DNA of 64,000 bases from Dictyostelium discoideum (Eukaryota). The stretch spans positions 4,288,001 through 4,352,000 of the forward strand of contig CM000150.2 in assembly GCA_000004695.1 (NCBI GenBank). Direction: 5' to 3'. A program made the position numbers and the translations under genes. This document shows, piece after piece, positions 51,034-56,548 of this stretch; the first letter of the stretch is position 1, and the number at the start of each line of letters is the position of its first letter. The notes beneath the pieces are model-generated. The model ran no database searches. It saw only the letters and a list, made by a program, of their open reading frames with translations, and was not told the origin of the DNA.

Positions 51034-51529
51034 TAGTTGAAAGTAAATATCTAACATTTAGTTTATTATATATCTAATTAATTAATCATTAAAAAATATA
51101 AATATACATTCATAATTGGCCCATACTACTTTATTACCATTTTCATTTTCTTATAAACAACTGCCTAAATTATGATTTATTTGGGTTAAAAAATAAATTA
51201 AAAAAAAAAAAAAAAAAAACATTTTTATACACTGATATATAAATACAAACATTTCCATCCTCTTGAAGTATAAGTGGTTATCATATGTCCTGGTTATTGT
51301 AATAGTGAAATATTTAAAAAAATAAAACAAAATTTATTATTCTCATACAAATTCAATTATTTTAGTGGTAATTATTATTTTTGTCTTTGATTTATAGAAT
51401 TGTTGTGATTAGTCAATAATTTCTAATAAATTTTTTTTTTTATTTTTTATATACAATTAACTAATAAACTTAACAAGATTTTAATTTACAAAAAAAAAAA
51501 AAAAAAAAAAACCATTATTTTCCCAATTG

Positions 51530-52174
51530 ATGATCGGTAGTCCACAATCGTTGCCATTGGGATTGGGAGTTGGTGGATCAATGTTGTCCTTAATACTTTG
51601 CAATATGCAACAACCTACATATACAACTTATGACACCATTTGGGATGGTCCATTGGATTATAGTGTAAAGAAACCAATTTTAAAAAGTGTTGATAAAAGT
51701 GGTAAAAGTGTAATAGAGTTTGAAGAATTCAGTAAATCGGTTATACCAATTACAGTTGCCAATTATTCAACGTTACATAAAATGGCATTCGTTTCATTTT
51801 GTGTATTCAATGGAATTTCACTATCACCCGCTTTCGGATTACTCCCAGTATCTACAGTTTTGGGGGTCGCAGCTTTAAGTGTATTCGTTACTGGTGGTAG
51901 TGCTTTTGCTGCATTAAAGATGAAACCTGATAGTTTAACCAAATATAAACCAATACTCTATGGTAGCTTGTTTGGTCTTTTCGGATTGGGTTTGGTTTCA
52001 ATTGGTACTTCAATAATGATGGGTGAGAATACTTTCACCCATTTCGCTCAAGAGTTTGATCTCTATTTTGGTCTTGCTTTATTCACTGGTTTAACTGCTT
52101 TAGATACAATGCTGTCAAAACTTTTCAAGAGGGTAAACCAGATAACATTAGAGTTTCAATTGATCTATTTTTAG
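51530..52174 (+). CDS. Multi-pass membrane protein with GC-shifted codon usage. Possibly TMBIM/BI-1-family-like.
   Basis: The ATG is at 51530. There are glycine-zipper TM helices (GSLFGLFGLGLVSIG). The C-terminal LDTMLSKLFK resembles the TMBIM 'DTQ..I' motif. Third-codon positions are unusually G/C-rich for this genome. Confidence 0.4.
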   Translation: MIGSPQSLPLGLGVGGSMLSLILCNMQQPTYTTYDTIWDGPLDYSVKKPILKSVDKSGKSVIEFEEFSKSVIPITVANYSTLHKMAFVSFCVFNGISLSPAFGLLPVSTVLGVAALSVFVTGGSAFAALKMKPDSLTKYKPILYGSLFGLFGLGLVSIGTSIMMGENTFTHFAQEFDLYFGLALFTGLTALDTMLSKLFKRVNQITLEFQLIYF

Positions 52175-52227
52175 ATATTTTAAATATTTTTGTTAGACTT
52201 TTAAGAGCTAGATAGCAATAAGTAACC

Positions 52228-52267
<40 letters not shown>

Positions 52268-52830
52268 CTGTAGATAAAAAAAAAAAAAAAAAAAAAGAAA
52301 TAAAAAATATGGTATTAAAATTTGTAAATAAATAAAGTTGTAATTAAATTTAATCAAATAACAAATTTTATGGAAGAAGATATTTTCCAATTTTTTAAAA
52401 AACAAACAAAAAAAAAAAAAAAAAAAAATAAAAATTATTATGGATGCCAAAAATTGTTGGTTTATAAAATATTTTAAAAATTTTTTATCTTGGTTTAATT
52501 TAAATAATGTTTTGAATTGGTTTTATTAAAAAAAAAATTATTTTTTATTTTCAAAAGTTACATATAATTTTTTTTTTTTTGTTTTAAAATTAAAATGATT
52601 ATTTTAAAAAGTTTAAAGAAATTATCATGTGATTATTTTAAAATTAAATCAAAATAAAAGATATTTATTTTTTAAAAATATCTTTTTCGTCAAAAAAAAA
52701 AAAACCGTCGTTTGTGTAAAAAATAGAAAAAGGACATTATTTTTTAAAAAAAAAAAAAAAAAAAAAAAAGCATTTAATACATTTCGATAAAATTCAAAAT
52801 CAGAAAAAAAAGCTACCTTTTTAACAAAAA

Positions 52831-54379
52831 ATGACAGAAAAATATAAGGTAAACTTTTTTTATATTTTATTTTTATTTTATATTTTAAATTATAATTTCA
52901 ATGTTGTAATTTCAATTTTTCCAACATCATTTTCTCAAATTAATTCAACAAATGGGTTTTTAATATCAGAAGGCAGAAGTTTAATTTCAATTACACATGG
53001 AGACTTGAACGGTGATGGTAATGATGATTTGATATATGCTAAACATTCAGAAGGACTATATGTATTTTATGGGCCATTAGCAAGTAATTTTGATTTTCAA
53101 ACAGACATATCAAAAATCAACGGTTCAAATGGTTTTATTTTTTTAAATACTACTGTTCTAATGTATCGAATAGCTGTTGGTGATATAAATAATGATGGAT
53201 TTGACGATATTGCTTTTTTTTTAAATATTATGCCAGGAAAACTTTGTGTTATCTATGGTACTGATCAAATTATATCACCTTCTACTTTTTCCACAGTGAA
53301 TGGTAATAATGGTTTCTATATTTCTCACGTTTCGTCCTCTAATATTGCATTTGGGCTTGTAAGATCAATCATTGATTTCAATGGTGACTCAATTAAAGAT
53401 TTATTTGTAGGTACATATTTTTTTTATTTTTTTATTTTGTTTTAAAAGTATTGTTGTTAATACAACACATATTTTTTTTTTTTTTTTTTTTTAGGTCTCT
53501 GCAAGTATAGGAACTTATGTAAGTACAGGAACACCAATTTCATATATGATATTTGGTATAAACGGTGGTAAATTTCAAGTTAATTCACAATTTGAATTTG
53601 ACCCTTCAACATTAAATGGGAGTAATGGTTTTTTAATTAATAATTTCAATTCATATGCGGCTTATCCTTATGATATGAATAATGATGGGATTGGTGATAT
53701 AATTATAAATAGGGGACATATAGCAATCGATATTATTTATGGTAGCAGAGGTCCTTTTACCTCACCATATATCCCAGTTTATGATGGTGTCAAAGGTACC
53801 AGTTTCAGCTTTTTAGGTTGCTCAACAAATTATAATGCTCTTCCAAATGCTTTTGGAGATTTTAATAATGATGGACTAAATGATTTTGGTGTAATTTATT
53901 CTTTATTATTTTTTGATTATTCTTATTCTTTATTATCCTTTATTGTTATTATACTAATTTTTACATTTTATTAAATAATTTTAGATTCTTACAAAACATA
54001 CTTCGGGTGACTATATAGCTTTTTTGGTTTGGGGTAAAACAGAATATCCACCAACAACAACATTAAGTATAAATCTAAATCCATCGGATGGTTTGGTTAT
54101 AGCAGTTATTGGCAACACCTATAACTGGGCTTTTTCTCCTAGGTTAGGGGATATAAATAATGATGGATTTGCAGATTTTTTAATCAATGGTAACACTGAC
54201 CTCCCATTCACCATTTTGTATGGTAATAATAAAAATTATGCTTCAAATCCAATTTATTTAAAAGATCAAGTTGGTGATTGTTCAAAAATGTCAATTAATG
54301 GCTATGCTGAGGCTATTGATATTGGTGATTATAACTCTGATGGTATTGATGATATTGTAAGTAATATTATATTAAATCA

Positions 54380-54459
<80 letters not shown>

Positions 54460-56152
54460 CATTATTTTTAACTTTTAAATAACTCTATTCTATCAGACAG
54501 CAGCTATATTAGCAACAGGTTCATATTTAGATATTTATACAATATATGGTCAAACTTCGATTGGTTCAATTTCAATAATTAGTAAATTATTTCAACCAAA
54601 TCCAATGTCAAACTCAATTTATAAATTATTTGAAAATAATATTAATTCAGAAGTTGGACAATGCGCAATTAGAATTGTTACATTAACAATTGAAAATCCA
54701 GCAAATGAAGATCAATTTATTATTAATCCTAGTTTCGATAGTTCAATATATTCAATAACATTTAATAATAATACAAGAGTTAGAATTGAATTAATATTAT
54801 TTGGTGATGAGAGTAAATCAATTGCAAATGATGTTTTACCAAAAATAACAGTTTCATTGTCACCTCAGCTATTTAATAGAACTATATTAATGAAATATGG
54901 TAATCAAGTACAATCAATTAAATTCATTGGTCAACCAAATGCAAATTGTGATACAAAATGTTTAAATGGAGGTACTTGTAATCCACTCACTGGTTGCCAA
55001 TGTATAAATGATCATTATGGTGATTATTGTGAATTAAAAGATTGTACAGTTCCACAATGTTTAAATGGTGGTTCATGTAATACAACAGTTGGTGAATGTT
55101 CATGCACTCAAGGTTATGAAGGTACGGATTGCAGTGGTATTAGTTGTTCAGCTTCATGTTCAAATGGTGGTTCATGTAATACTACAGTTGGTGAATGTTC
55201 ATGTCCTCAAGGTTATGAAGGTGTAGATTGCAGTGGTATTAGTTGTTCAATTTCATGTTTAAATGGTGGTTTATGTAATACTACAGTTGGTGAATGTTCA
55301 TGTATTAATGGCTTTTATGGTGATGATTGTGATACAAAGGATTGTACAGTTCCACAATGTTTAAATGGTGGTTCATGTAATACTACAGTTGGTGAATGTT
55401 CATGCACTCAAGGTTATGAAGGTATAGATTGTAGTGGTATTAGTTGTTCAGTTTCATGTTTAAATGGTGGTTTATGTAATACTACAGTTGGTCAATGTCA
55501 ATGTATAAATGACTTTTATGGTGATAATTGTGGTACAAAGGATTGTGCAGTTCCACAATGTTCAAATGGTGGTTCATGTAATACTACAGTTGGTGAATGT
55601 TCATGCACTCAAGGTTATGAAGGTATAGATTGTAGTGGTATTAGTTGTTCAGTTTCATGTTTAAATGGTGGTTCATGTAATACAACAGTTGGTCAATGTC
55701 AATGTATAAATGACTTTTATGGTGATAATTGTGGTACAAAGGATTGTACAGTTCCACAATGTTTAAATGGTGGTTCATGTAATACTACAGTTGGTGAATG
55801 TTCATGCACTCAAGGTTATGAAGGTATAGATTGTAGTGGTATTAGTTGTTCGGTTTCATGTTTAAATGGTGGTTTATGTAATACTACAGTTGGTCAATGT
55901 CAATGTGTTGAAGATTATGATGGCGATGGTTGTGGTTCTGATAATAAAAAGAAAACAAATATTGGTGTTATCATTGGCCCAATTCTAGGTGGTCTTGCAC
56001 TAATTGCAATTATTGTTGTTGCAATTGTTTTAATTAAAAAGAAGAAGAATGGAAATTCAAAAAAAAATACAAATAACATTGAATTAAGACCTCAAGGTTC
56101 CACTGTTGATATTCAAATGGGTGGTAGAATTAAAAATCTTGATAAATTTTAA
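52831..56152 (+). CDS. Type-I membrane protein: signal peptide, an integrin-alpha-like FG-GAP beta-propeller, about 13 tandem EGF-like repeats, a TM segment and a short basic tail. Four exons: join(52831..53406 or 53410, 53495 or 53529..53890, 53985..54356, 54497..56152).
   Basis: FG-GAP/Ca-binding repeats are GDLNGDGNDDL, GDINNDGFDDIA, DFNGDSIKDLFVG, MNNDGIGDII, FNNDGLNDFG, GDINNDGFADF and GDYNSDGIDDI. The EGF units are CLNGGSCNTTVGECSCTQGYEGIDCSGISCSVS. The TM segment is IGVIIGPILGGLALIAIIVVAIVLI, followed by KKKKNGNSKK. The exon 1/2 junction is ambiguous between two phase-compatible solutions. Confidence 0.75.
54377..54466. repeat. (TTA)n microsatellite in the FG-GAP gene intron 54357..54496.
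   Basis: Run of tta repeats. Confidence 0.85.
55041..55900 (+). repeat. Tandem near-identical 198-bp repeats, each encoding a pair of EGF-like modules, inside the FG-GAP gene.
   Basis: The motif GATTGTACAGTTCCACAATGTTTAAATGGTGGTTCATGTAATAC... recurs with more than 90% nucleotide identity. Confidence 0.7.
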
Positions 56153-56455
56153 ATTTAAAAAGAGATTATTTTAAATCAATTCTGTTGTATTATTATTGTT
56201 TTTTACTTCCAAAAAAAAAAAAAAAAAAAATTTTTGATCAAAATGATTATAATAAAAACCGCAGGGGTTATTTTTAAAAATAATTTGAAAAAATTCAGTG
56301 ATTTCATTTTATTATTATTTTTTTTTTTTTCTTATTTTTTTTTTTGTTTTTTTTTTTTTTTTTTTTTAATAATTTTGTAAAATAAAAATAACTCTTATAA
56401 ATTACATGTTGTATTATTATTTTAAAATTTGTAAATAAATAAATAAATAAATAAA

Positions 56456-56493
<38 letters not shown>

Positions 56494-56497
56494 ATAC

Positions 56498-56548
<51 letters not shown>

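Follow-up and report, generated by a model that had tools for sequence, protein, structure and literature searches.

DDB_G0271042 of Dictyostelium discoideum: a putative adhesion or recognition receptor with an FG-GAP propeller head on an EGF stalk

The gene DDB_G0271042 lies on the forward strand of a 64,000-nucleotide stretch of the Dictyostelium discoideum genome (contig CM000150.2, positions 4,288,001 to 4,352,000; this whole stretch is called the window, and positions are counted from its first letter). From its sequence, the product is predicted to be a type I plasma-membrane protein, heavily N-glycosylated, and most likely a membrane-anchored, Ca2+-dependent adhesion or recognition receptor, a reading that we consider probable but by no means certain. 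The gene was assigned to a fast-evolving family found throughout the Dictyostelia. In this family the head, the transmembrane (TM) helix and the tail are conserved from Heterostelium to Dictyostelium, and the stalk is exchangeable, being either mucin-like or made of EGF modules.

The gene was already annotated, its sequence was public, and its domains are detectable with standard tools. The public annotation reads only 'hypothetical protein' or 'EGF-like domain-containing protein'. As far as the literature searched shows, the new points are the Dictyostelia-wide family with its conserved head and anchor and its exchangeable stalk, the bacterial-type arrangement of the head, the periodic hypervariable loops, and the variation between strains in stalk length and in gene copy number.

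The propeller head and the linker

The initial annotation, made by a model from the letters alone, noted at least seven FG-GAP/Ca2+-binding motifs in the N-terminal half. Exactly seven were found, starting at residues 58, 118, 182, 252, 314, 380 and 439 with a spacing of 59-70 residues; shuffles of the same region gave an expectation of 0.011. Six of the seven were of the strict form D-x-N-x-D-G-x-x-D, and the loop in blade 3 read DFNGDSIKD.

The Pfam check proposed in the same annotation, for FG-GAP and EGF, gave FG-GAP (PF01839, E = 2.7e-13) and FG-GAP_3 (E = 1.8e-17) in the head and EGF_TEN (E = 1.4e-38) and EGF_2 (E = 1.4e-28) in the stalk, all over their gathering cut-offs. Structure prediction, also proposed there, agreed with a propeller of seven blades. 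The AlphaFold2 model of residues 36-630, for which 63 homologs were aligned, had a predicted template modelling score (pTM) of 0.70, and its propeller part comprised 28 strands at a per-residue confidence (pLDDT) of 80-95. The head was thus modelled as a seven-bladed propeller of the FG-GAP class. The top Foldseek matches of the model were ITFG2, BBS7/BBS9, CRTAC1 and several integrin alpha chains. As far as the model goes, fold comparison by itself did not pick out integrins.

Outside the dictyostelids, the nearest relatives by sequence were bacterial FG-GAP proteins. DDB_G0271042 matched a Nostoc FG-GAP protein (E = 9e-41, 33% identity), and many more cyanobacterial and Bacteroidota proteins matched at E = 1e-30 to 1e-16. 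In an alignment of 54 non-dictyostelid homologs, mostly bacterial or metagenomic, the D, N and G columns were invariant in every blade. Each of the seven regular blades had the D-x-N-x-D-G-x-x-D type of loop and an L-N-G-x-N-G-F connector, as in bacterial FG-GAP propellers; the same connector and the same loops in seven of seven blades occur in the 'beta strand repeat-containing' proteins of Nostoc and Desmonostoc and in the T9SS proteins of Bacteroidota.

On the other hand, the C-termini of the bacterial FG-GAP proteins are RTX repeats or T9SS sorting domains, and these proteins have no eukaryotic signal peptide, EGF stalk, TM helix or tail of the kind seen here. Pfam found neither a HemolysinCabind nor a T9SS domain in DDB_G0271042. 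The gene also differs from its bacterial relatives in having three spliceosomal introns. If the head is of bacterial origin, these introns were gained later.

Behind the propeller lies a linker of about 130 residues. In the conservation map it was the most conserved stretch of the ectodomain, and a Pfam scan of it gave no match. It is homologous to the linkers of Tieghemostelium and Heterostelium. The Tieghemostelium linkers were missed by a local jackhmmer search from the D. discoideum linker and were found by profile-profile comparison. An exhaustive search of 1.84 billion proteins with the linker profile returned 21 matches in total, from Tieghemostelium lacteum, Heterostelium album, the second Dictyostelium subfamily and giant bacterial surface proteins.

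In the giant bacterial proteins, 3-10 tandem repeats matched linker positions of about 45-118 (profile E = 4e-12 to 2.6e-8). A 3647-residue Pseudomonas type I secretion protein is an example. Pfam scans showed that these repeats fall outside the Pfam-annotated regions of their proteins. A profile made from the bacterial repeats also matched residues 513-599 of the Desmonostoc FG-GAP/RTX protein P0083 (58 bits), directly after its propeller. DDB_G0271042 and P0083 therefore share a related module in the same place, and the order of propeller and then module exists in cyanobacteria. In sequence and in domain order, the head as a whole was judged to resemble bacterial FG-GAP adhesins.

The repeat-bearing bacterial proteins were P0239, P0240, P0242, P0243, P0247, P0248, P0250, P0251 and P0083, and the consensus of the repeat read ..LTGATVTIxNxQxGDxLNFTxQNGITGSYSxGVLTLTGxATxAQYQxALQSVTFSTTSxNTxxRTIxVVAxD. 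A cadherin-like nature of the linker was considered and rejected, as the match to P0245, which has Cadherin/Big_9 repeats, spans only a short strand motif.

Variation in the head was periodic. The analysis of variable sites was anchored on the Ca2+-loop motifs. Among eleven close homologs, variability peaked at offsets -10 to -5 and +12 to +17 from each loop, and the Ca2+ loops and the connectors between blades were nearly invariant. The copies of the gene on chromosomes 1 and 2 of strain AX4 differed in the same way: the flanking zones make up 42% of the residues and contained 23 of their 27 propeller differences (p = 6e-6). The linker, the TM helix and the tail were almost unchanged between these copies.

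In an antiparallel blade, each loop points to the other face of the propeller than the loop before it. By this topology, both variable zones should be found opposite the Ca2+ loops, on the face with which integrin propellers bind ligand. By analogy, the variable face probably serves to bind a ligand and is diversifying.

Apart from those in the EGF array, the protein has just four cysteines. Inspection of homologs by eye showed C423 in blade 7 (near 54281) to be conserved, and C504 in the linker (near 54662) was invariant in a 20-sequence linker alignment covering Dictyostelium and Tieghemostelium. A disulfide between the two may staple the linker to the propeller.

The stalk, the anchor and the family

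The stalk had been taken for about 13 EGF repeats. We counted exactly ten six-cysteine modules, all of which fit the pattern C-x(2-4)-C-x(5)-C-x(5-6)-C-x-C-x(8)-C. By their sequence they are non-Ca2+-binding modules of the tenascin/teneurin type. Pfam gave no match to the calcium-binding EGF_CA, and the sequences between modules (...DCSGISC... and ...CGTKDC...) were without the D-x-[DN]-E-C consensus. Nine of the ten modules contained an NTT glycosylation sequon.

The EGF pairs had been described as more than 90% identical in DNA, and this agreed with the 90-100% identity of the interior units. Modules 5 and 9 were 100% identical over 102 bp; identity was 98-100% among modules 5, 7 and 9, and 98% between modules 6 and 8. 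The interior modules were 0.93-1.00 alike within a protein versus 0.67-0.90 to any module of other species, and the first and last modules retained positional orthology across species. A homogenised interior between orthologous end modules is the pattern that unequal crossing-over and concerted evolution leave behind.

The number of modules varied widely. The AX4 paralogs had 10, 10 and 8 modules, and other D. discoideum assemblies had 10, 10, 8, 6 and 6. Elsewhere, the count was 9 in both D. cf. discoideum and D. dimigraforme, 7 and 5 in D. citrinum, and 4 in D. purpureum. Inside the array, the modules were not in the same order in the two AX4 copies that have ten. Recent amplification or concerted evolution, possibly with copy-number polymorphism, had been suspected at the outset, and it was supported by the range of 4-10 modules across paralogs, strains and species, by the homogenised interior and by the strain-variable copy number of the gene. 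The number of EGF modules was interpreted as changing quickly through unequal crossing-over.

Only two hydrophobic segments were found in the whole protein, the signal peptide and the TM helix. The layout of the signal peptide is common to the homologs of D. purpureum, Heterostelium and Tieghemostelium, and it is followed by a conserved motif, FP[ST]S[FY]xQ[IV]NxTNGF. All TM-bearing members examined contained the TM motif N[IV]GVI[IV]GPI[ILV]GG.

The single TM segment and the basic tail of 38 residues were as first described. The tail reads KKKKNGNSKKNTNNIELRPQGSTVDIQMGGRIKNLDKF, and its end motif, GGx[IV]xx[IL]D[KR][FY]-COOH, was kept from Heterostelium to Dictyostelium. Neither GFFKR (KxGFFxR) nor NPxY, the absence of which had been noted from the start, was present in these 38 residues.

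Within the family, identity to DDB_G0271042 fell to 40% in D. purpureum, and the family extends beyond this species. The TM and tail motifs were conserved in D. purpureum, in Heterostelium album and in the second Dictyostelium subfamily. A mucin-like Thr/Ser-rich stalk stands behind the same head in the Heterostelium member, in P0252 of the second Dictyostelium subfamily and in the Logan-assembly protein P0143, and these mucin-stalk members also carry the TM cassette N[IV]GVIIGPI[IL]GG (GxxxGxxxG) and the GGx[IV]xx[IL]D[KR][FY] tail. Since the same head and anchor occur on mucin stalks elsewhere, the EGF array is the stalk variant of one Dictyostelium subfamily. The propeller-EGF fusion itself was also present in orthologs from five other species or strains.

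Tieghemostelium lacteum has about 20 paralogs, automatically named 'tenascin X' (P0124-P0142, P0237, P0238, P0246, P0249). Those examined shared the head, which was followed by a Thr/Ser-rich mucin stalk and, at the C-terminus, by a Cys-rich knot; a TM helix was absent. In two, P0134 and P0135, there was an extra insert of about 250 residues.

P0141, a protein of 1093 residues from a JGI metagenome, had two consecutive FG-GAP propellers of bacterial-like consensus, Pro/Ser-rich linkers, and a glycine-rich TM helix with a tail at its C-terminus. It matched the Tieghemostelium protein at E = 1.7e-33, a far stronger match than that of any bacterial protein. Its source may be an uncultured amoeba, and this would point to a family wider than the sequenced dictyostelids.

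On chromosome 4 of AX4, two members are truncated and start in blade 7: DDB_G0285745 (P0015, 507 residues) and DDB_G0285565 (P0016, 380 residues). In a newer assembly, the models at the same loci were longer, P0005 with 912 residues and P0013 with 829 residues, the latter fused to a short-chain dehydrogenase. DDB_G0285745 and DDB_G0285565 may be pseudogenes or mis-annotated full genes.

Proposed function and rival explanations

As a receptor, the protein would probably bind an extracellular ligand with the variable face of its propeller. The ligand could be a protein or a glycan, on prey, on the substratum or on another cell. The stiff, glycosylated EGF stalk would set the distance of the head from the membrane, and its length would be easily altered by unequal crossing-over. 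In the membrane, the glycine zipper is expected to mediate helix-helix association, and the conserved tail motif GGx[IV]xx[IL]DKF would bind a cytoplasmic partner.

The head had been called integrin-alpha-like. This held for the FG-GAP propeller fold, but not for the legs, the GFFKR motif, the Ca2+ pattern of the blades or the sequence affinity. The metazoan chains alpha-V, alpha-5, alpha-6 and alpha-IIb have legs, GFFKR and Ca2+ in the last 3-4 blades; of the canonical features, only the propeller head was found in DDB_G0271042, which lacks KxGFFxR and has Ca2+ loops in seven of seven blades. No match to the thigh, calf-1 or calf-2 legs was obtained with Integrin_alpha2 and related Pfam models. 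An EGF stalk is found on the beta chain of integrins, not on the alpha chain, and here it is attached to an alpha-type head. Because there are no thigh or calf domains and no GFFKR, because all blades have Ca2+ loops, and because the nearest non-dictyostelid relatives are bacterial, the product was classified as not being an integrin alpha.

Searches of the PDB gave a similar picture. With the single sequence, no chain was matched at E <= 1, although integrin alpha chains are abundant there. On the other hand, a profile of the family and its bacterial relatives detected the blades of integrin alpha-V (E = 3e-17), and the 60 best of its 71 matches were all integrin alpha chains. We interpreted this profile-level match as homology at the level of the superfamily.

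These profile matches would also be expected of a divergent true integrin alpha ('type II ITGA') whose propeller and TM helix would join it to a SibA/SibC-like beta subunit in a non-canonical adhesion heterodimer, an explanation that we regard as unlikely. Integrin TM helices carry a GxxxG-type motif, and so does that of DDB_G0271042. The signal peptide, the seven-bladed head with cation motifs and the single TM helix agree with the minimal criteria of Kang et al. (10.1101/2020.04.29.069435), and what these authors describe as type II ITGA (a signal peptide and/or TM helix, at least three FG-GAP blades with cation motifs and a flanking domain of a kind absent from metazoan ITGA) is likewise present. 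Among their amoebozoan ITGA, paralog 1 of Flabellula citata has one EGF-like domain C-terminal to the head, and others have cadherin-like or Ig-like domains beside it, some with a signal peptide and a TM helix (10.1101/2020.04.29.069435). DDB_G0271042 has ten EGF modules to the one of Flabellula, and the two are likened by description, not by phylogeny. The combination of an alpha-type propeller with EGF modules, first described as unusual for an amoebozoan, therefore needs qualifying, in view of the Flabellula protein and of the Dictyostelia-wide family. The strength of the bacterial matches (E = 1e-41 to 1e-25) and the lack of any single-sequence match in the PDB stand against an integrin alpha, as do the absence of legs and of GFFKR and the loops in every blade. 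Kang et al. reported no ITGA in Dictyostelium spp., and both their work and a 2026 paper (PMC13199403) state that Dictyostelium is without canonical integrins, beta chains included.

The Sib proteins and DDB_G0271042 are both single-pass Dictyostelium surface proteins that recall one integrin chain. The Sib proteins resemble the beta chain, having a VWA domain and an NPxY tail, and the family described here resembles the alpha chain in its head only. We know of no link between this family and the Sib proteins. Where PMC13199403 cites earlier work on them, SibA and SibC mediate substrate adhesion.

CRTAC1 also joins a propeller of the FG-GAP class to EGF (Foldseek 9etn_A, E = 9.6e-8). It is secreted, its one EGF domain binds Ca2+, and it also has an ASPIC/UnbV domain; Pfam matched neither UnbV_ASPIC nor EGF_CA in DDB_G0271042, which has a TM helix instead. 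ITFG1/LINKIN, ITFG2 and FAM234A/B, which are metazoan non-integrin FG-GAP propeller proteins, lack an EGF stalk and differ in their TM helix and tail; ITFG2 is cytosolic, in the KICSTOR complex. The Pfam model Beta-prop_FAM234A_B gave no match in DDB_G0271042.

Two further explanations were considered. The protein might be mainly a structural or matrix component, of the slime sheath, stalk or spore-coat type and possibly shed. Dictyostelium matrix proteins often have EGF or mucin stalks, and the Tieghemostelium paralogs, with their mucin-like stalk and Cys-rich knot, look like typical secreted matrix proteins. However, the TM helix and the tail motif were highly conserved in the Dictyostelium, D. 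purpureum and Heterostelium relatives examined, which speaks for a role at the membrane with a partner in the cytoplasm, and a matrix role seems improbable. Alternatively, the gene might be a recent duplicate, redundant or decaying and evolving neutrally, in which variability reflects relaxed constraint. The dispersed duplication of 5 kb with its truncated Bax1-I gene, the two fragmentary AX4 members DDB_G0285745 and DDB_G0285565, and ratios of nonsynonymous to synonymous change (pN/pS) near 1 in the propeller and the EGF array would all fit. But the reading frame, the splice sites, the seven Ca2+ loops and the 60 EGF cysteines were all intact; the paralog differences were not random in position (p = 6e-6), sparing almost entirely the Ca2+ loops, connectors, linker, TM helix and tail; and the family is conserved to 40% identity in D. 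purpureum and beyond. Neutral decay is quite improbable.

Several points weigh against the receptor reading and the adhesin-like head that goes with it. Between the chromosome 1 and chromosome 2 copies, the propeller had a pN/pS of about 1.1, from 30.3 nonsynonymous and 7.7 synonymous differences, and the EGF array had one of about 0.96. A value near 1 could mean relaxed constraint rather than diversifying selection, the counts being too small to separate the two. The assignment of the variable face rests on topology and not on inspected coordinates. Each bacterial repeat stretch matched the linker weakly (5-10 bits). A profile built from the bacterial repeats alone matched the dictyostelid linker profile with an hhalign probability of 93.3% (E = 2.6e-7), but the bacterial segments had been chosen with the dictyostelid profile, and the test was partly circular. 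The structure model of the linker had a pLDDT of 58, and the fold search with it gave no support for a leg-like domain. Finally, no paper naming the gene, its paralogs or their accessions was found in the literature searched, and nothing pertinent turned up among related studies.

One more reading was considered. The whole head, propeller and adhesin repeat module together, would have passed by horizontal transfer from a bacterium, possibly a cyanobacterium, to an early dictyostelid, where it gained a eukaryotic stalk, a glycine-zipper TM helix and a tail by fusion, and the resulting family would now serve as the alpha-like partner of the Sib proteins. We hold this combination to be very improbable. 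If it were true, Dictyostelium would have a non-canonical, independently assembled two-chain 'integrin', in which the ligand face and the stalk length diversify between strains, and the adhesion receptors of dictyostelids would have been built from bacterial parts. The current view is that Dictyostelium is without integrins and relies on the beta-like Sib proteins (10.1101/2020.04.29.069435; PMC13199403).

Dictyostelium serves as a main model of cell adhesion, of phagocytosis and of how multicellularity arose. For it, the family offers candidates for an alpha-like Sib partner, for receptors of prey or substratum, and for strain-variable recognition molecules. The family also illustrates modular receptor evolution, with one head and anchor on either a mucin or an EGF stalk and with a head that may be bacterial in origin.

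Gene structure and duplication

The gene span first proposed, 52831-56152 on the forward strand, agreed with an ATG at 52831 and a stop codon at 56150-56152. The spliced translation of the four exons was identical to XP_646589.1 (DDB_G0271042 of D. discoideum AX4) over its full 999 residues. Other splice pairs for introns 1-3 were rejected, as the chosen set gives the database protein exactly. All three introns are of phase 0 and of the GT..AG type.

The junction of exons 1 and 2 had been regarded as uncertain, near 52849. No junction was found there, and the first intron is the one at 53407-53494. The candidate donor 'gtaaac' at 52849 lies inside the sequence coding for the signal peptide, which splicing to the first downstream AG would remove; the annotated protein and all homologs also read through this site.

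The propeller and the EGF array had been assigned to a single gene. A single exon holds the end of blade 7 and all that follows, from the linker and the EGF array to the TM helix and the tail, so the two parts do not belong to separate genes unless intron 3 is left unspliced. A tblastn search of the 64-kb window gave no second copy of the gene. Its composition is AT-rich, like that of the host genome.

Table 1. Positions of DDB_G0271042, its parts and the surrounding duplicated segment in the window
Feature	Positions	Strand	Remarks
Whole gene DDB_G0271042	52831..56152	+	Exons 52831-53406, 53495-53890, 53985-54356, 54497-56152; 999-residue product
Predicted signal peptide, residues 1 to about 35	52831..52935	+	Hydrophobic core at residues 9-30; same layout in homologs
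Seven-bladed FG-GAP beta-propeller, residues 36-465	52936..54547	+	Split by three introns; seven Ca2+-loop motifs
Intron 1	53407..53494	+	88 nt, GTAGGT..TAG, phase 0; two residues past the blade-3 Ca2+ loop
Intron 2	53891..53984	+	94 nt, GTAATT..TAG, phase 0; two residues past the blade-5 Ca2+ loop
Intron 3	54357..54496	+	140 nt, GTAAGT..CAG, phase 0; one residue past the blade-7 Ca2+ loop
Conserved linker domain, residues 466-598	54548..54946	+	All-beta plus one helix (low-confidence model); no Pfam family
Linker sub-module, residues about 510-587	54680..54913	+	Apparently related to an unnamed tandem repeat of about 85 residues in giant bacterial surface / type I secretion proteins
Ten tandem EGF modules, residues 599-927	54947..55933	+	Two types, of 34 and 33 residues, alternating in most of the array
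Near-identical EGF core	55156..55906	+	Tandem Repeats Finder (TRF): 201-bp double unit, 3.7 copies, 96% matches, no indels
TM helix, residues 937-961	55961..56035	+	Glycine zipper G938xxxG942xxxG946
Cytoplasmic tail with stop codon	56036..56152	+	38 residues, basic; conserved C-terminal motif
Segmentally duplicated cassette of about 5 kb	51516..56548	+	3' part of a Bax1-I gene, promoter and whole gene; 93.9% identical to the chromosome 2 copy with DDB_G0275659

The donor sites at 53407, 53891 and 54357 occupy nearly equivalent positions in the alternate blades 3, 5 and 7, 1-2 codons past the Ca2+ loops. This spacing could have arisen by duplication of units of two blades, or because introns were gained more than once at like positions. 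Intron 3 contains an (ATT)30 microsatellite at 54380-54470, and it differs from the intron of the chromosome 2 paralog at 27 gapped alignment positions.

The cassette carries a fragment of a Bax1-I gene that was duplicated with it (open reading frame 51527-52174 of the window; Pfam Bax1-I, E = 1.9e-8). The matching duplicated locus was L002 8594-13754, and L003 and L004 were also compared. On chromosome 4, a full-length Bax1-I gene lies upstream of DDB_G0285585, and the cassette probably came from this locus. In another strain (L003), the same chromosome 4 locus holds a tandem pair of family members, of 866 and 1000 residues. The copy number of the family thus differs between strains.

In the newer assembly (L002 2967-9318), an RNA polymerase Rpb1 gene and the Bax1-I fragment are called as one product of 1906 residues. 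This fused call is probably an annotation artefact arising from the duplication.

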